Positions 2,203 to 53,604 of a stretch of DNA of 64,000 nt are shown in pieces. The notes beneath the pieces are model-generated. The model was not told the DNA's origin. It saw nothing but the letters and a program-made list of their open reading frames with translations, and ran no database searches. The position numbers were made by a program, and so were the translations under genes. Positions within the stretch are counted from its first letter, which is position 1. Every line of letters begins with the position of its first letter. Source of the DNA: a virus (lineage: Duplodnaviria > Caudoviricetes); IMG/VR virus record IMGVR_UViG_2534682025_000001, positions 20,615-84,614 of that record; one strand, written 5' to 3'.

Positions 2203-3436
2203 TATTATCACCTTTGTAATTGGTCCCGACTTTATCAAGCGGAATTAATGCCGATTGAATTGTATAAATTTCCCCACCCGCAATAGGCGCTTCATTTTCT
2301 TTGCGTCTTACTTCATTTCGGTTATACCAACCATTGTTGAGTGCAGATGCATAATATTCAGCACGGCCTTTTGAGTCTGCCCGCAATAAGCCTTCCACAC
2401 CAAACTCAACGTAATAGGTTTCAAACTCTGCAGCACCAATCAGGCACCGTGAAATTTCCTGTTCAATATTGACCAGTAATGGACGCAAGGTATTGGTCAG
2501 GAATTGCATGTTCATGCCTTCAACACTGGAGGCCCATGAGCTTTGCTTATCCAAATGTCCAACCATGAATGGTGGTACCCGGAACCAGCGGCAAATTTCC
2601 TCAATTTCAAATGTCCGGGTTTCTAACATCTGAGCCGCTTCAGGATTCATAGTGATACCGTGGTATTGCATACCATTTTCAAGCACCATCATTTTTCCGG
2701 CATTCTTGGATCCCATGAATTTCTTCATATTGTCTCTAAGTGAATCACGCTGATCCGGCGTTAATTTCCCCTGGGCAGATAAAAGACCTGATGTTTGCAA
2801 ACCGTTTTCAAAGAACTTTGCTGCGGCTTCTTCAGCAGCCTGTGCAGCCCCAATGGTTTCACGCGCTTTCTGGACCTTAAATAAGCCCATCACCCCATCG
2901 ATACCAAAACCACGAACATGCATCATGTTTTTTTCAGTGATTTCACGCTTAGCACCACTTTCTGTGTAAGTGTATTTCAGCATTCCATTGGTCTTGTTTC
3001 TGGTCACTACCATGTTTTGGGGTAGCAATGGATTCAATGAAATAATCCGGCCTGATGCACTGCGAATAATTTCAATGTATGAATTTCCCCATAGGCAGAT
3101 ACTGGCCACAATCATCAGCATGAACCGGCTTGGCGTCATTTCATAGTTTGGTGACCGGCACAAAAGATTGTAGAGCGGATGCTTAACTGCAACATCCCGG
3201 CTACCGTCCGCTTTTCGCTGATAAATCTTAAGAGGCAGCGTTGATACTGTTTCTGAAATCAAACTCACACATGAAAAAACGGCGCTCAATTGAAGCGCCG
3301 AATCTACAGTTACATGCTTACCACTCGATGTGGCCAATAATGCCCTTAATAATTCAGGCTCCAGACTCAGATGCCCATCAAGCCCAAGGAAGCGCAAAGC
3401 TGCTTGAGCAAACCGACCCGGCTTCTTTGTACTCAT
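2171..3436 (-). CDS. HK97-family portal protein
   Basis: AVFSCVSLISETVSTLPL, LWGNSY, EEICRWFRVPP, NEVRRKEN motifs. Confidence 0.95.
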   Translation of the reverse strand: MSTKKPGRFAQAALRFLGLDGHLSLEPELLRALLATSSGKHVTVDSALQLSAVFSCVSLISETVSTLPLKIYQRKADGSRDVAVKHPLYNLLCRSPNYEMTPSRFMLMIVASICLWGNSYIEIIRSASGRIISLNPLLPQNMVVTRNKTNGMLKYTYTESGAKREITEKNMMHVRGFGIDGVMGLFKVQKARETIGAAQAAEEAAAKFFENGLQTSGLLSAQGKLTPDQRDSLRDNMKKFMGSKNAGKMMVLENGMQYHGITMNPEAAQMLETRTFEIEEICRWFRVPPFMVGHLDKQSSWASSVEGMNMQFLTNTLRPLLVNIEQEISRCLIGAAEFETYYVEFGVEGLLRADSKGRAEYYASALNNGWYNRNEVRRKENEAPIAGGEIYTIQSALIPLDKVGTNYKGDNNEQTKPAASR

Positions 3437-5161: not shown

Positions 5162-5653
5162 CTACATATTCAGCACCTGCGCAAATTTATTTGTTTTAGG
5201 TTTATTACCCCCACCACCTAACCGCCCCCGGGAAGATGGATCCAGACCCAGCATTGCCCCAAAAGAAGCCATCTGTTTTGATGCCTCATTCACTGCAGTC
5301 AAGGCTGGATTTTTAATCGTACTGCCTTGCGCTGTTTCCAGTGTGGGTCCATTCTCGACTACTTCTTTTTGGGCTACGCGCAAGTTGTGATAAGCCATGC
5401 AGAACATTTCCACGTTGTGCATGTCTGTAATTTTAAGAACTTTGTTTTTTAATAATTCCGGAATAACCGAGCGCCACATTATCTCAGCGTACTCCATCTC
5501 TGAAAGATATTCTGGTACTTCAATATCTACGACATCAGCAAATTCAGGCACATTGGTATTGAGAGGACGTCTGCCCGGGTTGCCAGCTGCCCGTTTTGCT
5601 TCCTGCGGTTTTGGCTTTCGGCCACGCCCAGGAACAGAAGAAACTCCACCCAT
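5162..5653 (-). CDS. terS: Terminase small subunit, P27 family
   Basis: GRGRKPKP...GNPGRR, NPALT, GLDPSSR motifs; directly upstream of terL. Confidence 0.92.
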   Translation of the reverse strand: MGGVSSVPGRGRKPKPQEAKRAAGNPGRRPLNTNVPEFADVVDIEVPEYLSEMEYAEIMWRSVIPELLKNKVLKITDMHNVEMFCMAYHNLRVAQKEVVENGPTLETAQGSTIKNPALTAVNEASKQMASFGAMLGLDPSSRGRLGGGGNKPKTNKFAQVLNM

Positions 5654-7352: not shown

Positions 7353-7717
7353 TACTTTTCTCCAGACAAAAAAATACCTCCTTTACAGGGAAAGGAGGCA
7401 GAAACTTAATAGAAACTACAGCCATAGAATCTGGCCCGCATTATATACATAATAATATTATATGCAAGGCTGTACCCTTAAATTGAACCTTGCAATAAAA
7501 AGCCTGCTTAGCTGGAGGGCTAAACAGGCCGTGGAGTATTACATTATACTTGTTGTTGTAGCGTTCTAGGAATGAACACAAGATACCAGTTGCTCACCAC
7601 AAATAAGTATAAGAAATATATGCAGAATGTTTTAACGTGTAATAATTAAGTTATATTTATCAATAAATTGATCATCATTTAGTCAAAAATATCACTTAAT
7701 AATCAATCTTGTTTATC

Positions 7718-7794
7718 TGGCACGCCATGTAGGACTCGAACCCACAACCATTGGTATAGAAAACCTATGCTCTTTCCAGTTGAGCTAATGGCGC
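7718..7794 (-). tRNA. tRNA-Arg (anticodon TCT)
   Basis: Cloverleaf GCGCCAT/ATGGCGT, D arm GCTC-AACTGGAAA-GAGC (A20), anticodon loop TTTCTAT, TTCGAGT T loop, encoded CCA; A28-A42 mismatch. Confidence 0.88.
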
Positions 7795-7800
7795 ATAAAA

Positions 7801-8035
7801 AAGGATATGACGATCTGCCACACCCTTGCCTTAGATTACGATACTGACCAGCTCGGCAACTGATCTACCGCTACTCACAATCCCACACACCTAACATGCA
7901 CGGTCCGCTTTACTTGCTTTCAATCCTCTTTAGGTCGGGACGCTACTCCCTAGTCTAAATTCCCGAAGGAAGTTTACTCGATGGCATGTTCCACTGCTCG
8001 GCACTCCAGAAGGCTTGGGTCGCCTTTTCACAGGC
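7801..8035 (-). ncRNA. Candidate ~235-nt structured late RNA upstream of the tRNA (copy 1)
   Basis: Near-identical copy at 52648-52881; C(UUCG)G tetraloop, G-C to G-U substitutions, long-range AACAUGC/GCAUGUU helix; no long ORF shared by both copies. Confidence 0.72.
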
Positions 8036-8038
8036 ATT

Positions 8039-8064
8039 AAAAAAGCCCACCATTTGGCGAGCTT
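8039..8064 (-). terminator. tR'-like terminator of the late leader
   Basis: GCTCGCCA-AA-TGGTGGGC-TTTTTT on minus; same hairpin at 52885-52908. Confidence 0.75.
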
Positions 8065-8100
8065 TCAAATCAATCTAGTGCTTTAACGTACACTTCGATC

Positions 8101-8224: not shown

Positions 8225-10453
8225 ATGATTAATTGTCTACATATTAAAAAAATCGCGACTTATAATTCTATTGGTGTAGAAATAAATGACCTAAATAAAG
8301 TCAACTTTATCTATGGTGGTAACGGTTGTGGGAAAACAACTATTTCAAATTTTTTATTTCATCATACCCATCCTGATGAATCTGCTAGCAATTATTCTTC
8401 ATGTAACATTGCATTTAAAAGCCTAGAAAAGATCAAAATTTTAACTTATAACAAAAAGTTCAGGGATCTAAATTTCTATAAAGATTCTGAAATACCGGGT
8501 GTTTTCACGTTAGGTGAGGCTTCAATTGAGGAAATACAGGCAATAAATAGCAAAACAGAAGAGTTAAATCTAGCAAATAAAGAATTAAACAAGACTCAAA
8601 CTCAAATTACTAACTTTACTGAATTATCAAATAAACAAGAAAAAGAATCGATAGAAAAATGCTGGGACGTATTCAAACAATATGAAGATGATTTCAGACC
8701 AGCTCTTCTAGGTTCTGGATTTTTGGGCTCTAAGGCTAACTTCAGAAAAAAAATTTTAAATACATTACCTTTGGGCGGGAGAATCATCAAACCACATTCT
8801 TCTCTTGTTGATCGCACCAAAACACTTTTTTCAACAAAATTAGAAACACTCGATGAAATTCACCTTAATGAATCAAATCCCCTAGAACTTTATGAATCAT
8901 CAGATATTTGGAAAACAATTATCATTGGTAAAAAAGACTTAGATATAGCTAAATTAATTAATAATTTAAATATTACAGATTGGGTAAACCAAGGACGTTC
9001 ATACATAAATGATTCAACTTGCCCTTTTTGCCAAAAAGAAACTATTGATGATGTTTTTAAAAGCAGACTTGAGGAGTATTTTGATAATGAATTCGAAAAC
9101 AAGGTAAAAAATCTAAAAGCTTTGCAAGAAAAATATGAAATTGCTTGTACTAATTTGATTAAAGAATTAGAAAACGTCTTAGCCAAAGAAATAAGTAGAA
9201 ACAGTAAGCTCAATATAAAAGAGTTTGAAATCGAATTAGAAAGTCTTAAAAACCTACTAAGATTAAATATTCAATTATCACGGGAAAAGCTAACCAGTAT
9301 AAGTAGCATAATAGAATTAAGCTCATCTAATGATATTTTTAATGAAATTACTTCACTTATTAACAGTGCAAATATCGAGATTAAAAATCACAACGATTTA
9401 GTTAATTCACATGTTCAAGAAACCACTAAGTTGACTTCAGAAATTTGGGATTTTTTAACATTCGAAGCTAATCACCGTATTTCATCACATGAAACTCAAA
9501 TAGAAAATCATTGTAAGGCCCTCAACGGAATGAAGGCATCTGAAGAGAAAGGAAAAGAAAAAATTCAGCGCTTAAGCAATGAGCTTTCCCAATTAAATTC
9601 AACTTCAACAAGTGTACAGCCTGCAGTAGATGAGATTAACCTCTTATTAAAAGGATTTGGTTTTACTAATTTCAAAATTGATAAAGCTGAAAAGCCTAAT
9701 CATTACTGGATCAAACGTGATAATGGTGACAATGCCTTGCACTCACTAAGTGAGGGTGAATCTACATTTATTACTTTTTTGTATTATCTACAGGTAGTTA
9801 AAGGCTTATCAACTAAAGATGAGGCAATCACAAGCAAAATCTTAGTTATCGATGATCCAATTTCAAGCTTAGATAGCAATGTATTATTTATAGTAAGCAC
9901 ATTAATTAAAAATCTTATAAAAGGTACAATATCTAGAGATAGCACACTGGGTATTAAACAAATTATCATCCTTACTCATAACGTATATTTTCATAAGGAG
10001 ATCTCATTCCAACTCCAAAAAGATGATTCAAATCATGTTAATTACTGGATATTAAGAAAAAAAGAAAACACGACATTCATTACAAATCATGGTAAAAACA
10101 ATCCTATTTCCTCAACATATCAAATGCTTTGGAATGATGTAAAAGAAGCAGACAAAAGTAGCTCAACATCAATTCAAAATATCATTAGAAGAATTCTAGA
10201 AAATTATTTCAAAATTCTAGGAAATTACAGCGACACACAAATTATTGATGAATTTAATACATATGAAGAAAAGAAAATTTGCCAATCATTACTGCATTGG
10301 ATAAATGATGGATCTCATTGCATTCCTGATGATTTATTTATTCAACCCATAGATTCAGAAAAAGATATTTATTTAGATGTTTTCAGAAAAATATTTGAGA
10401 AATCTGGACATGAGGCTCACTACAATATGATGATGGGTATAACTAATCATTGA
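8225..10453 (+). CDS. rloC: RloC-like anticodon nuclease (AAA_13/SMC-like ATPase, zinc hook, HEPN)
   Basis: Walker A GGNGCGKT, CPFC zinc hook in coiled coil, LSEGE signature, IDDPISSLD Walker B, LTHN, C-terminal RRILE...NDGSH; AT-rich and opposite to phage genes. Confidence 0.85.
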   Translation: MINCLHIKKIATYNSIGVEINDLNKVNFIYGGNGCGKTTISNFLFHHTHPDESASNYSSCNIAFKSLEKIKILTYNKKFRDLNFYKDSEIPGVFTLGEASIEEIQAINSKTEELNLANKELNKTQTQITNFTELSNKQEKESIEKCWDVFKQYEDDFRPALLGSGFLGSKANFRKKILNTLPLGGRIIKPHSSLVDRTKTLFSTKLETLDEIHLNESNPLELYESSDIWKTIIIGKKDLDIAKLINNLNITDWVNQGRSYINDSTCPFCQKETIDDVFKSRLEEYFDNEFENKVKNLKALQEKYEIACTNLIKELENVLAKEISRNSKLNIKEFEIELESLKNLLRLNIQLSREKLTSISSIIELSSSNDIFNEITSLINSANIEIKNHNDLVNSHVQETTKLTSEIWDFLTFEANHRISSHETQIENHCKALNGMKASEEKGKEKIQRLSNELSQLNSTSTSVQPAVDEINLLLKGFGFTNFKIDKAEKPNHYWIKRDNGDNALHSLSEGESTFITFLYYLQVVKGLSTKDEAITSKILVIDDPISSLDSNVLFIVSTLIKNLIKGTISRDSTLGIKQIIILTHNVYFHKEISFQLQKDDSNHVNYWILRKKENTTFITNHGKNNPISSTYQMLWNDVKEADKSSSTSIQNIIRRILENYFKILGNYSDTQIIDEFNTYEEKKICQSLLHWINDGSHCIPDDLFIQPIDSEKDIYLDVFRKIFEKSGHEAHYNMMMGITNH

Positions 10454-10473: not shown

Positions 10474-10508
10474 AAAATAAAACTCTATTTATTTAATAGA
10501 GTTTTATT
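10474..10508. terminator. Bidirectional hairpin between rloC and Q
   Basis: AATAAAACTCTATT...AATAGAGTTTTATT inverted repeat; second palindrome over the rloC stop (10440-10463). Confidence 0.65.
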
Positions 10509-10899
10509 GGTTACATATAAACTCTAATCTACAATCCAACCAGGTTTCCCCAGCAAGTAAATATTTATCGATTATGCGCCTGTCAACTTTACTTAATTTT
10601 TCCAAAGCTCGGATTGACAACCCCTTCAAATAATGAAACTCAATCCACTGGTACAGATCTGGCCGTGAAAAGCGCAACTGCGTCACCAGGTGATCAATAG
10701 CAACCAAAGCATCATCATCCAGCATCACCTGAATACCTGACGACTTCTGCCCCTCTTTCAAACGCATCAAACCATATGTAGGTGAGGTATAAGTCAATTC
10801 ACTTGGATTATATGAAGCATGACGCGCCCACTTACCCCACTGCGCCAATTCATTCTGCATCATTCGAACCGTTGGTTTTACTTCTACAATTGCGCTCAT
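10504..10899 (-). CDS. Late antiterminator Q family protein
   Basis: ELAQWGKWA, DDDALVAID, C-terminal sigma4-like HTH; last gene of the replication operon. Confidence 0.85.
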   Translation of the reverse strand: MSAIVEVKPTVRMMQNELAQWGKWARHASYNPSELTYTSPTYGLMRLKEGQKSSGIQVMLDDDALVAIDHLVTQLRFSRPDLYQWIEFHYLKGLSIRALEKLSKVDRRIIDKYLLAGETWLDCRLEFICNQ

Positions 10900-19430: not shown

Positions 19431-19606
19431 TGGTTCTTACAATTTCGCAAACCTGTAAATTATTAAATATCGGACGCACTACGGTTTACAGAATGTTTGA
19501 GCGAGAGGAATTAGAAAAAATTGAAATAGGAAAATCAGTCCGGGTTAAGCTCCCGGACCATCTGGCCAAAGCATACGAAGATCAAATTAAAGCCCTTATG
19601 CATTAA
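19430..19606 (+). CDS. xis: Excisionase (HTH_17), 58 aa, not in ORF track
   Basis: LTISQTCKLLNIGRTTVYRM...IEIGKSVRV; convergent with the integrase. Confidence 0.8.
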   Translation: MVLTISQTCKLLNIGRTTVYRMFEREELEKIEIGKSVRVKLPDHLAKAYEDQIKALMH

Positions 19607-20834
19607 GGGCTTTTAGTTTTAATGAGTCCAGATAATCAGACCACGCCTGCATCATCACCTGTCTTTCTTCTAAATACTTAGTACGGTTATATGCCCGACC
19701 ATGCATATCCCTCACCTGGTGGCCCAGCTGCTGCTCAATACGTTCAATCGGAAATTTTAAAACTTCATCTAATAAGGTACGTGCTGTTGCACGGAAGCCG
19801 TGGCCTGTGGTTTCGCCATTTTCCCAGCCTAAATTTTTAAGTGCCTTATTTATTGAGCTATCAGACAACAATCTGGTTTTACCCCAGTAATTGGCAAAGC
19901 AGTATTCAGATCCACCGGTAATCATATGCAACTCTTTAAACATTGCAGTGACCTGATCAGAAAGCGGTATCACCAATTGAGTACCTAAAGCATTTGCGGT
20001 TTTGGACGGCGTGTAGGCCCAAGTCTTTTCATCAAAATTTATATCGGCCCACATTGCATGACGCAACTCACCAGGACGAACAAACACATGAGGTAAAATT
20101 CTAAGAGCATAAGCCATTACGATTGAGCCGCGATTTGTATAGTTATCAATTGCCACCAGTAATTCACCAAGCAAACTAGGATCGGTGACGGCAGCATGAT
20201 GTGTTTTTTTATGGGGCTTTAATAGCCCTTGAATATCCAGTGCCACATTTCGATCACAAAGACCAAGCACTAAACCGTATTTAAACACTTGCCCTGCTTT
20301 TGATCGCATACGTCTTGCTGTTTCAGACTTACCTTGTTTTTCATAAATCTGGCAAACGTCGAGCAACTGGCGGGCTGATATTTCATGAATTGGCTTTTTA
20401 CCAATAGCATCAAACAAATACTGATAAATAAATTCGTTTCTATGTCTTGTTGATTCAGCAACAACTTCAGTTTGCATAAATTCGCGTGCCACAGCTTCGA
20501 ATGTGTTTCGCATGGCAAAGCGGGCTTGTTCTTCCTGTTCTTTTCGATGGGCAAACGGATCTATATCTTGAGCAAGTAGCTCTTTATATTCTTCACGGAA
20601 CTTTCTGGCATCGGCCAAAGATAAATTTGGATATACACCTATACCAATTGTCGTTCTTTTTTTTGTAATAGGTCGAAAATAATCAAAACGCCAATATGTG
20701 CCGCCTTTTTTATCTAAAAGCAGAAATAAACCACCACCATCAGCCAGTTTTATTATCTTTTCTGGTGACTTTTTTTGCTTAGATATTGCAGATTTAATTT
20801 TTGCGTCTGTGAGACTTACAACTGTTCTAGCCAT
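19596..20834 (-). CDS. int: P4/IntA-type tyrosine integrase
   Basis: LADGGGLFL arm-binding domain, GVYPNLSLADAR, RPGELR, HGFRATA, QLGH, AYNR. Confidence 0.95.
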   Translation of the reverse strand: MARTVVSLTDAKIKSAISKQKKSPEKIIKLADGGGLFLLLDKKGGTYWRFDYFRPITKKRTTIGIGVYPNLSLADARKFREEYKELLAQDIDPFAHRKEQEEQARFAMRNTFEAVAREFMQTEVVAESTRHRNEFIYQYLFDAIGKKPIHEISARQLLDVCQIYEKQGKSETARRMRSKAGQVFKYGLVLGLCDRNVALDIQGLLKPHKKTHHAAVTDPSLLGELLVAIDNYTNRGSIVMAYALRILPHVFVRPGELRHAMWADINFDEKTWAYTPSKTANALGTQLVIPLSDQVTAMFKELHMITGGSEYCFANYWGKTRLLSDSSINKALKNLGWENGETTGHGFRATARTLLDEVLKFPIERIEQQLGHQVRDMHGRAYNRTKYLEERQVMMQAWSDYLDSLKLKALNA

Positions 20835-21194: not shown

Positions 21195-22181
21195 ATGGCC
21201 ACCTTTAGACAAAGGGGTGATGCTTGGCGAGTTGAGATTAGTGTGAATGGTACTCGGGAAAGTGCAACATTCGATACTAAGACTCAGGCTCGCGCATGGG
21301 CATCAAAACGTGAAACTGAATTAAGAGAGTTATCACGCGGAAAGCTTCCTGATTATACATTAAATTGTGCAATTGATAGATACATAGAAGAAGTGTGCCC
21401 AAAGCACAAAGGTTGTGATGCAGAGATTAAAAGATTCCGAGCATTTCAAAGGAACTTCCCAAAGATTGCCAAAAAACATATTGCCAAAATTACCACCGAT
21501 GATTTTGTGGTGTGGCGAGATACCAGACTAAAAACAGTCAAGCCGGCCTCGGTACGACGTGAGGGTAATATCCTGTCTGCCCTATTCACTGTTGCACGCA
21601 CAGAATGGAAGTGGGTCTATGATTCACCCATGAGTGACTTAAAGATGCCACCACCACCAGCACATCGAGATAGACGTATATCGGAGGATGAAATTTACAG
21701 GCTTTGTCTTGCTGCTGAATTTGATGATCAGGCGCCTGAGAATTTCACACAGCAAATTATGATTGCTTTCCTGTTGGCGATTGAAACTGCAATGCGTGCC
21801 GGTGAGATCCGTGGCCTGACTTGGGATCGAGTTTATTTAAAGAATAGATATGTGACTTTGAATGAAACCAAAAATGGTACGAAGCGACATGTGCCCTTAT
21901 CAAAGCGTGCTGTTGAATTGCTTGAGCTTATGAAAGGTGTCGGCAGTCATCAGGTTTTTACGGTGAAAGATTCGAGCTTTGATACACTTTGGAGGAAGTT
22001 GCGAGATAAGTGTGAAATTGAAGATTTGCATTTTCACGACTCAAGACATGAAGCATGCACACGGCTTGCTCAGAAATTGGAAGTATTAGATTTGGCGCGG
22101 ATGATCGGGCATAAGGATTTAAGAAGCCTGATGATTTATTACAATGCAACTGCATCAGAGATTGCAAATAGGTTGGATTAA
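21195..22181 (+). CDS. int: Tyrosine integrase (short, Rci/XerC-like clade)
   Basis: TAMRAGE, TKNG, FHDSRHEA, IGH, YY catalytic set. Confidence 0.93.
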   Translation: MATFRQRGDAWRVEISVNGTRESATFDTKTQARAWASKRETELRELSRGKLPDYTLNCAIDRYIEEVCPKHKGCDAEIKRFRAFQRNFPKIAKKHIAKITTDDFVVWRDTRLKTVKPASVRREGNILSALFTVARTEWKWVYDSPMSDLKMPPPPAHRDRRISEDEIYRLCLAAEFDDQAPENFTQQIMIAFLLAIETAMRAGEIRGLTWDRVYLKNRYVTLNETKNGTKRHVPLSKRAVELLELMKGVGSHQVFTVKDSSFDTLWRKLRDKCEIEDLHFHDSRHEACTRLAQKLEVLDLARMIGHKDLRSLMIYYNATASEIANRLD

Positions 22182-22297
22182 AATGAAAACATGGACCTAC
22201 TTTTACATAGAGCACACGATTAAGAACGGAGAGATTTTTAGGAAGGAGTCTGGGTGGGGGTTGAGGAATTATTTATTAAAGTAAAAAAACAAAGCCC

Positions 22298-52566: not shown

Positions 52567-52641
52567 TGGCACGCCATGCAGGACTCGAACCCACACCACC
52601 GATTTTGGAGACCGATGCTCTACCAGTTGAGCTAATGGCGC
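52567..52641 (-). tRNA. tRNA-Trp (anticodon CCA)
   Basis: Cloverleaf with acceptor GCGCCAT/ATGGCGT, loop CTCCAAA, G73, encoded CCA; U27-G43 and G30-U40 wobbles. Confidence 0.9.
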
Positions 52642-52647
52642 TTAAAT

Positions 52648-52881
52648 AAGGATGTGGCGATCTGCCACACCCTGCCTTAGATTACGATATTGACCAGCTT
52701 GGCAACTGATCTACCGCTACTCACAATCACACACACCTAACATGCACGGTCTGCTTTACTTGCTTTCAATCCTCTTTAGGTCGGGGCGCTACTCCCTGGT
52801 CTAGATTCCCGAAGGAAGTTTACTCGATGGCATGTTCCACTGGTCAGCACTCCAGTAGGCTTGGGTTGCCTTTTTACAGGC
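52648..52881 (-). ncRNA. Candidate structured late RNA (copy 2)
   Basis: Homologous to 7801-8035 with structure-compatible substitutions. Confidence 0.72.
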
Positions 52882-52945
52882 AACAAAAAAGCCCACCATT
52901 TGGCGAGCCTCTTAACACTTGGTCACTTTTGTATAGAACGACCAG

Positions 52946-52984: not shown

Positions 52985-53518
52985 TTAAGCTTTTCTCAAA
53001 TTTTTCCGATAGATATCTGCATAAAAATCTATTTCATCACGCATGTCTGAAAGCATAATTTCTACCATGTTTTCCAGATAAGCATAGTGCTCCCGATACG
53101 TCCGCATCTTCATCTCTGTGATGCCAAAAAAGCGTAGTTTGTCTTCGGCTTTAAAATTACCCATATCTCGAAGACTTAAGAATAGCGCCATCTTTGCCAC
53201 CTTGAATGCAAAGGACTTAAGATCAAATCGAATACGCTGCACATCCTTTGCTAAAGCCTCATAGAGACTAGCAGCTAAATAATGATGCAAAATATTGTAG
53301 GCCATTGTGTTATCTCGATAGTCACCCCATACCAAGATTTCACAATATGCCTTTGTTGCCTGATCATCGATTGAAGCAATAGCACCACAGCGATCTTCCC
53401 ATGTAATTGGCTCCAAACTACCACCCCCTTGACTTGGTTCATAATTTGCTGTTTTGGCTCTTAACTGCTGCCCCAACCATTCAATGTTTGTCATCTTTTC
53501 AGCTACCATCGCATTCAT
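52985..53518 (-). CDS. Putative late antiterminator (Q position)
   Basis: Directly upstream of late promoter/terminator; no clear similarity to prophage 1 Q. Confidence 0.6.
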   Translation of the reverse strand: MNAMVAEKMTNIEWLGQQLRAKTANYEPSQGGGSLEPITWEDRCGAIASIDDQATKAYCEILVWGDYRDNTMAYNILHHYLAASLYEALAKDVQRIRFDLKSFAFKVAKMALFLSLRDMGNFKAEDKLRFFGITEMKMRTYREHYAYLENMVEIMLSDMRDEIDFYADIYRKNLRKA

Positions 53519-53529
53519 CCCATCCACCC

Positions 53530-53604
53530 TCAAACCCTTAACTTTTCAACTTGAATAATCAGCTTCCCGCCTTTTTCTGATGGCAACCGCTTTAAGTCAG
53601 TCAT
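53530..53604 (-). pseudogene. Probable C-terminal remnant of a RusA-like resolvase
   Basis: KRLPSEKGGKLIIQVEKL resembles RusA C-termini; position before Q. Confidence 0.45.

Follow-up and report, generated by a model that had tools for sequence, protein, structure and literature searches.

The window analyzed here, a 64,000-nt stretch of DNA (positions 20,615 to 84,614 of virus record IMGVR_UViG_2534682025_000001), comes from an 84.6-kb record in which two lambdoid prophages lie in tandem. ARAGORN found exactly two tRNA genes in it, a tRNA-Arg(tct) in prophage 1 and a tRNA-Trp(cca) in prophage 2. Both were also recognized by the Rfam tRNA model RF00005, with scores above its gathering score of 29, so that two independent finders assign them to this family. 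The two genes and the features around them are listed below in window coordinates.

5162-5653, minus strand: small terminase, prophage 1, with small ORFs between the tRNA and the terminase
7718..7794, minus strand: tRNA-Arg(UCU), prophage 1 (ARAGORN; RF00005 55.7 bits; 20/21 stem pairs)
7796..7833, minus strand: terminator-like hairpin with U run between RNA and tRNA, prophage 1 (terminator scan 7827-7801(-); fold -14.6 kcal/mol, z -3.6)
7846..8013, minus strand: Pseudomonadales-1 RNA (RF03046), prophage 1 (cmscan 112.7 bits, gathering score 68, full model)
8036..8074, minus strand: hairpin with T run upstream of the RNA, where homology between the prophages starts (alignment; fold -16.1 kcal/mol)
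8225..10453, plus strand: RloC/PrrC-like anticodon-nuclease candidate of 742 aa, prophage 1 (PF13166 AAA_13, 1.7e-157, full length)
10504..10899, minus strand: Q-type antiterminator gene, prophage 1 (PF06530, 4.2e-14; phrog_79, 1.7e-22)
52567..52641, minus strand: tRNA-Trp(CCA), prophage 2 (ARAGORN; RF00005 60.4 bits; 21/21 stem pairs)
52643..52679, minus strand: homologous hairpin with interrupted U run, prophage 2 (fold -17.6 kcal/mol, z -4.7)
52692..52859, minus strand: Pseudomonadales-1 RNA (RF03046), prophage 2 (cmscan 119.6 bits, full model)
~52886-52913: prophage 2 copy of the upstream T-run hairpin (fold -16.1 kcal/mol)
52985..53533, minus strand: 182-aa gene at the Q position, prophage 2 (phrog_5656, 2.9e-69)

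In both prophages the tRNA gene lies about 50 nt downstream of its RF03046 RNA at the head of the late operon, and in both a spacer hairpin precedes it, in agreement with the preliminary description, which had placed the two genes at a common locus. Alignment of 800 nt around each tRNA gave a homologous block composed of the T-run hairpin, the RNA, the second hairpin and the tRNA, which stops three bases past the CCA. The spacer hairpins of both prophages fold well below shuffled controls and end 2-4 nt from the tRNA, in untranslated leader; the prophage 2 hairpin (52643..52679) was not called by the terminator scan. The tRNA is located between an antiterminator gene and the packaging and structural genes, on the same strand as these, which is the arrangement that defines a lambdoid late-leader slot. 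In prophage 2 an HNH endonuclease and other genes follow the tRNA, and the 182-aa gene (52985..53533) had no match in Pfam, PADLOC or NCBIfam. Most related loci have a gene of 146-189 aa located 100-170 nt upstream of the RF03046 RNA, and in locus L045 a Q gene stands immediately upstream of that RNA.

Elsewhere in the record, a 31-bp exact direct repeat occurs at window positions 22183-22213, directly after a XerC-like recombinase gene (21195-22181), and again at about position 3424 of the record, 17.2 kb to the left of the window; it probably marks the homologous left ends of both tandem prophages. The window also contains a P4-type integrase gene (19596-20834, minus strand) and, inside the structural gene region of prophage 2, an int-alpA RNA (RF02996; 41925-41998, minus strand; 40.0 bits, threshold 35.8).

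When the Arg and Trp genes were aligned, 65 of 77 columns (84%) were identical. Parsing both into the cloverleaf register bore out the earlier observation that they share some arms and differ in others: the acceptor stem, D stem, T loop, G73 and encoded CCA are identical, and the differences fall in the D loop, where GGAAA of the Arg gene stands against GGTA of the Trp gene (A20 versus U20, with the Trp loop one base shorter), and in the anticodon arm, where 8 of the 17 positions differ. One further base differs in the variable loop, and position 64 is A in the Arg gene versus G in the Trp gene, each pairing with U50. The first pair, 1:72, is G.U in both tRNAs, and the Arg gene (7718-7794) has an A.A mismatch at 28:42. 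Over the 345-column homologous block, differing columns make up 8/17 of the anticodon arm versus 23/328 elsewhere (Fisher p = 2.4e-5). The clustering of Arg/Trp differences in the anticodon arm is not due to chance.

The bacterial ArgRS identity set consists of A20, the base that ArgRS needs, together with C35 and U36 or G36. That of bacterial TrpRS consists of C34, C35, A36 and G73, the last being the main acceptor-end mark, with A1:U72 in addition in E. coli tRNA-Trp. The gene at 7718-7794 has the Arg set, with A20 in GGAAA and a TCT anticodon providing C35 and U36. The gene at 52567-52641 has the CCA anticodon and G73 of the Trp set; its first pair is G1.U72 rather than A1:U72, U72 being present, and A1:U72 occurs in related Arg alleles (group C, below). 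The contrast of A20 with U20, pointed out in the preliminary description, was seen not only in the window but in every form surveyed: all Arg forms have an A directly after G18-G19, and all Trp forms have U20.

To judge whose frame the two genes share, we compared them with the tRNAs of five Acinetobacter genomes that bear the RF03046 leader RNA. Identical positions by region were as follows.

Trp form versus Arg form: acceptor + T arm + 73, 31/32; D arm, 18/20; anticodon arm, 9/17
Trp form versus host tRNA-Trp: acceptor + T arm + 73, 24/32; D arm, 16/19; anticodon arm, 15/17
Arg form versus host tRNA-Arg(UCU): acceptor + T arm + 73, 20/32; D arm, 17/20; anticodon arm, 9/17

Host tRNAs are 72-80% identical to the window tRNAs, and overall identity of the Trp form to host tRNA-Trp is 78-80%; the acceptor stem and T stem of host tRNA-Trp are unlike those of the window tRNAs. 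The proposal of one scaffold with two identities is thus upheld by the agreement of the top half, 31/32 between the two forms versus 24/32 and 20/32 with the host isoacceptors. It would have failed if each tRNA were nearer to its host isoacceptors than to the other; instead, their mutual identity of 84% exceeds those of 78-80% and 72-75% to the host. The anticodon arm behaves differently. The anticodon loop of the Trp form, CTCCAAA, is identical to that of host tRNA-Trp, and so is the whole 5' strand of the arm, only stem positions 40 and 43 differing. In the Arg allele, positions 32 and 38, both U, depart from host Arg(UCU), in addition to the 28:42 mismatch.

Searches of a phage collection showed that both window tRNAs match one and the same set of phage tRNA-Arg genes. 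This type of acceptor and D arm is also present in Gifsy-1, Klebsiella phage ST16-OXA48phi5.2, two Vibrio phages and Acinetobacter phage Mithridates, and G73 is already found in several of these phage Arg tRNAs. The combination of RF03046 leader and tRNA was found in no record of the collection: 0/54 matching records cover 80% of the query, the tRNA part alone being matched. By their kinship in acceptor and D arm, the frame (acceptor stem, D stem, T arm, G73 and CCA) can be assigned to a widespread phage tRNA-Arg(UCU) family, and the Trp(CCA) allele reads as this Arg frame with a tRNA-Trp-type anticodon arm and A20 lost. On the chromosomes of Acinetobacter we also noted a second, divergent tRNA-Trp(CCA) of 74 nt (loci L097, L106, L110 and L111; genomes G002-G004), located beside tRNA-Leu(tag) and tRNA-Leu(cag); these chromosomes carry the standard 76-nt tRNA-Trp in addition.

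We then surveyed the slot, using the 3' part of the leader RNA as bait. The search yielded 65 viral contigs and 17 chromosomal loci, all 17 of them in Acinetobacter, which together with the two copies of the window make 84 slots. Their contents were:

No tRNA: 35/84
Arg: 26/84
Trp: 8/84
Trp + Met: 7/84
Arg + Met: 2/84
Met alone: 2/84
Trp + 91-nt Ile(UAU)-like tRNA: 1/84
Cut by a contig end: 3/84

In total, 28 of the 84 slots bear Arg and 16 bear Trp, and 35 of the 81 evaluable slots are empty. The survey of anticodons across Acinetobacter prophages that the preliminary description had called for therefore reveals a polymorphic slot, occupied by nothing, Arg, Trp, Met or combinations of these. 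A second search, with the 3' half of the tRNA as bait, matched at least 122 loci; among the matches listed, the tRNA was Arg(tct) in 100 and Trp(cca) in 20, with 2 more truncated, and no third anticodon was found, the constant top half of this set being partly built in by a bait that selects the 3' half. Hence the earlier notion of a "retargetable slot" holds as far as the polymorphism of the slot is concerned, but only two identities have so far been seen on this frame. Among 201 Acinetobacter genomes (up to 4 candidates scored per genome), the Trp form was present in 5, the Arg form in 5 and both in 2.

The orphan Rfam motif RF03046 was present in all 84 slots, its 3' part being the bait, at the late-operon head of Acinetobacter prophages. 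A T-run hairpin stands upstream of it and a terminator-like hairpin downstream, and it lies directly behind either a Q gene (prophage 1 and L045) or the 146-189 aa gene of unknown family. It may be an RNA of the late leader or of antitermination, comparable to the lambda pR'-tR' leader. The name "Pseudomonadales-1" is absent from the searchable full-text literature, which comprises articles without their supplements.

Other tRNAs at or near such slots were also recorded. In 9/84 slots (L020, L027, L034 and others), two nucleotides separate the Trp or Arg tRNA from a second tRNA directly behind it, which has a CAT anticodon and is built on a different frame; in 2 slots this tRNA stands alone. 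A 91-nt tRNA called Ile(tat) by ARAGORN adjoins Arg tRNAs in L041 (8945-9032, minus strand) and 9 other loci; its variable region contains about 21 inserted nt, yet it scores 69.1 bits against RF00005, and it may be a direct AUA reader of unusual build. Group C (L146 and about 66 further viral loci) consists of Arg(UCU) tRNAs that have the T arm, acceptor 3' strand and G73 of the slot tRNA but A1:U72 and quite different D and anticodon arms; the RF03046 RNA is missing upstream of most copies. At the contig end of L162 lies a second Trp(CCA) with the A1:U72 acceptor and T arm of group C and other D and anticodon arms, whose flanks have none in common with other loci. It possibly forms, with group C Arg, a second and independent Arg/Trp pair.

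Arg and Trp genes occupy homologous genomic positions, with a common RF03046 leader and common flank clusters. Loci with Arg, with Trp and without a tRNA are intermixed in a tree built from the 224 nt that precede the slot, and the Trp label requires 6 changes, at least 3 of which are forced by well-supported branches. The upstream region of the window Trp locus is 98% identical to that of an Arg locus, L053, and a single upstream cluster brings together 16 Trp-form and 22 Arg-form genes with 4 host-core Arg and 5 group C Arg genes. Downstream, five flank clusters contain both Arg and Trp forms; in L237, a locus without the leader RNA, the Trp allele is joined to the downstream flank of prophage 1. 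Since both flanks are common to both forms, we conclude that the Arg and Trp forms are alleles and not paralogues.

We also looked at how the two alleles vary, using 11 variants of the Arg form from 34 loci and 6 variants of the Trp form from 21 loci. Wherever a stem position varies, pairing is preserved in both forms, with two exceptions: a 28:42 mismatch that is fixed in the Arg form (G.A in 32/34 loci, A.A in 2), and the Trp variant of L237, which has two acceptor-stem mismatches. At 50:64, a compensatory change from U:A to C:G has occurred once in each form. The Trp alleles differ from one another by few bases. Both alleles are conserved, and on several flank backgrounds. The preliminary description had proposed a coordinated switch of identity rather than decay; pairing being kept, there is no decay, but the change may be a patch from tRNA-Trp and not coordinated point mutation.

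How the Trp allele came about was considered from several sides. Outgroups point to the Arg form as ancestral and to a change from Arg to Trp, although the ancestor may instead have been Trp-like, the anticodon stem of the common Arg allele being already 8/10 like that of host Trp. Because the Trp alleles differ by a few bases only, a single Trp origin followed by spread through recombination would be the simplest history. In three loci (L050, L054 and L060) the D arm and anticodon arm are those of host Arg(UCU), set within the phage acceptor stem, which indicates that inner patches are exchanged with host tRNAs at this slot. Since Arg alleles of the slot thus combine a phage acceptor stem with the core of host Arg(UCU), we give a patch from a tRNA-Trp gene about an even chance as the origin of the Trp allele, slightly likelier than stepwise change. 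No exact donor of the Trp arm was found among the viral loci, 18 of which carry the core, all on this frame; nor did the 201 Acinetobacter genomes contain any full-length match between 84% and 97% identity.

The lack of an exact donor in the viral loci and the 201 genomes speaks for the main alternative, a stepwise origin by point mutation in place, for instance from UCU via CCU to CCA with loss of A20 and with no donor at all. Such a route would be eased by the common Arg allele, whose stem resembles the Trp stem at 8/10 positions, by Arg variants whose D loop reads GGATA, a single deletion away from GGTA, and by the G73 that the Arg frame has beforehand. However, about 10 changes would be required, 8 of them in the anticodon arm, and not one intermediate occurs among the 55 Arg- and Trp-form loci. 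The Trp arm moreover equals that of host tRNA-Trp at 15/17 positions, including the whole 5' strand and the loop, and the host-core Arg alleles document patch exchange at the very same slot. We therefore regard stepwise change as a serious candidate that falls short of an even chance. Two independent captures of host tRNA-Arg and tRNA-Trp at one hot spot, with no common frame, are very improbable: the slot does take Met, the 91-nt Ile-like tRNA and host-like Arg cores, but the window tRNAs have every base of the acceptor stem (the unusual G1.U72 included), D stem and T loop in common, along with G73, their mutual identity is 84% versus 72-80% to any host tRNA, and host tRNA-Trp has different acceptor and T stems.

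The gene next to the slot in prophage 1 was analyzed separately. It is inserted against the direction of the operon, between Q and the leader RNA. Its 742-aa product matches PADLOC model PDC-S06 (1.6e-242) and, over residues 471-726, the PrrC model (1.1e-12), and had no relative in the PDB by sequence. The translation contains a P-loop and a CxxC, the motif of the RloC zinc hook. Hence it resembles RloC and PrrC in its full-length AAA_13 domain, C-terminal PrrC-model match, PDC-S06 match, P-loop and CxxC; the gene is not generally associated with the slot, and it is known here from its sequence. Searched for by tblastn in 82 loci, it turned up in one, L026, as a copy identical to that of the window. 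Opposite-strand cargo directly upstream of the RNA was present in 2/54 loci; the second such cargo, a 227-aa protein in L017, had no Pfam or PADLOC match. A co-occurrence of the slot tRNA with defence cargo, which the preliminary description had suggested looking for, did not emerge for this gene. Because just one other of the 82 loci has the nuclease-like gene, and in an identical copy, it is a neighbour of the slot and not a partner shown by co-occurrence.

The account that we consider probable, with some reserve, is that the two genes are alleles of one phage tRNA gene in the late-operon leader of lambdoid Acinetobacter prophages. The order is antiterminator gene, Pseudomonadales-1 RNA, hairpin, tRNA (0 to 2 genes), and then the HNH endonuclease, terminase and structural genes. 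The Trp form would have arisen once from the Arg form, either stepwise or when a tRNA-Trp gene donated a short patch by recombination, and further recombination, acting through the conserved flanks and the identical tRNA ends, would have spread it. Because there is no room for a promoter between hairpin and tRNA, the tRNA would be transcribed along with the late genes by polymerase reading through the hairpin; dependence on Q is uncertain, since the prophage 2 hairpin is without a clean U run. The transcript would then be processed, and the tRNA, charged by host ArgRS or TrpRS, would join the tRNAs of the host in late infection. RNA libraries from three studies contain contigs that overlap the region: one covers 7718-8043 and so bridges leader RNA, hairpin and tRNA, and one extends over 7400-7877 with a word depth of 226. 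Such libraries may contain DNA, and contigs show neither transcript starts and ends nor levels, so that they lend weak support to transcription.

As to what the tRNA does for the phage, we tentatively prefer insurance against tRNA-cutting defences of the host or of rivals over codon supply. Phage tRNAs act as counter-defence to tRNA-cutting systems, as set out by van den Berg (2023; PMC10264068), and related cases are described for PARIS and T5 tRNA-Lys (PMC11464382) and for a retron and tRNA-Tyr (PMC11555353). Among the substrates of overexpressed PrrC, tRNA-Arg(UCU) is a strong one, and it is a substrate of RloC as well (PMC2610378). The Arg allele would fit this role: like the known counter-defence tRNAs, it is a phage version of a host tRNA whose anticodon stem-loop is altered (positions 32, 38 and 28:42 differ from the host). 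The Trp allele fits poorly, as its loop equals that of the host, and the presence of the nuclease-like gene at just one other of the 82 loci searched likewise speaks against this role. A bolder version strikes us as doubtful: the acceptor stem and T arm would be a fixed chassis, and the lower half (anticodon arm and part of the D loop) would be swapped with host tRNA genes by short patches of recombination, so that the phage could alter the amino-acid identity of its tRNA according to which tRNA the local anticodon nucleases (of RloC/PrrC type and others) destroy. If it were true, the slot with its Arg, host-core Arg and Trp alleles would display successive moments of an arms race.

Codon supply, whereby a prophage would bring whichever tRNA is most in demand in its late genes (AGA for Arg, UGG for Trp), is the classical reading of phage tRNA-Arg(UCU) genes and fits the position at the late-operon head. 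The codon counts nevertheless speak against it. Per 1000 late-gene codons, AGA amounts to 5.0 in prophage 1 (Arg) versus 6.2 in prophage 2 (Trp), and UGG to 14.2 versus 13.3. Among loci with at least 3 kb downstream, counting the first few kb of late genes in loci that are mutually related, median AGA was highest in the 18 empty loci (9.7), followed by the 11 Trp loci (6.7) and the 13 Arg loci (6.1), and median UGG was 14.7 in Trp, 15.5 in empty and 16.5 in Arg loci. AGA is thus not raised in Arg loci, nor UGG in Trp loci, and codon demand, which had been suggested as a driver, finds no backing here. Trp moreover has one codon, so that no rare-codon argument applies. We consider this purpose unlikely.

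A non-decoding role, in which the tRNAs would stabilize the late leader or direct its processing (as cutting sites for RNase P or RNase Z), or would be decaying passengers, has in its favor the position 2-4 nt past a hairpin in untranslated leader, the 35 of 81 evaluable slots that do without a tRNA, which marks it as dispensable, and the stem mismatches of the Arg allele and, in the acceptor, of L237. A processing signal would however have no need of matched identity elements, and A20 always accompanies UCU and U20 always accompanies CCA. The anticodon loops are intact, variation in stems is kept paired, and scores against the tRNA model are far above threshold. This role is accordingly hard to credit, more so than codon supply. 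Compensation for a host tRNA broken by integration was rejected: the host tRNA-Trp and tRNA-Arg(UCU) genes are intact in three lysogens (G001, G003 and G005), and no tRNA fragment is present at the prophage junction.

Alloacceptor tRNA remolding, also called tRNA gene recruitment, has been described for mitochondrial and nuclear tRNA families. The slot resembles these cases in that anticodon and identity are changed while the remainder of the gene descends from a tRNA of other identity; indeed, the Trp form is nearer to its alloacceptor (84%) than to its own isoacceptor (78-80%). It differs from them in being an allelic polymorphism at one slot of temperate phages instead of a duplicated paralogue, in the matched change of the synthetase identity base A20, and in that a patch from a host tRNA may be the source. 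In the full-text literature (articles without supplements), no phage case was found under remolding, alloacceptor or gene recruitment, and nothing relevant on tRNA-Arg or tRNA-Trp of Acinetobacter prophages, for which supplements may hold tRNA tables. Among lambdoid phages, the tRNA genes of Stx phages are further examples located behind the Q antiterminator. Klebsiella phage ST16-OXA48phi5.2 and Gifsy-1 are alike in that a tRNA-Arg(UCU) belonging to this family stands after the antiterminator gene and ahead of the late genes, directly behind Q in ST16-OXA48phi5.2. Unlike these, the Acinetobacter slot is anchored by the RF03046 RNA and a hairpin and bears alternative identities on one frame.

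As judged from the sequences, we conclude that this is real alloacceptor re-aiming in a phage tRNA slot, of a kind that is known in a setting that is new. What is new is the phage case itself, the persistence of both identities as alleles on shared flanks, the change of the synthetase identity base along with the anticodon, and the host-derived cores in the same frame. The slot provides a natural, population-level example of a change of tRNA identity in which both states survive as alleles on the same flanks, and it makes the steps of such a switch testable: the loss of A20, the pre-existing G73 and the replaced anticodon arm. It also indicates that the tRNA cargo of temperate phages is exchangeable at one fixed slot behind a conserved leader RNA, which bears on the question of what phage tRNAs are for, and it places the orphan motif Pseudomonadales-1 in a genomic context, namely the leader of late operons in Acinetobacter prophages.
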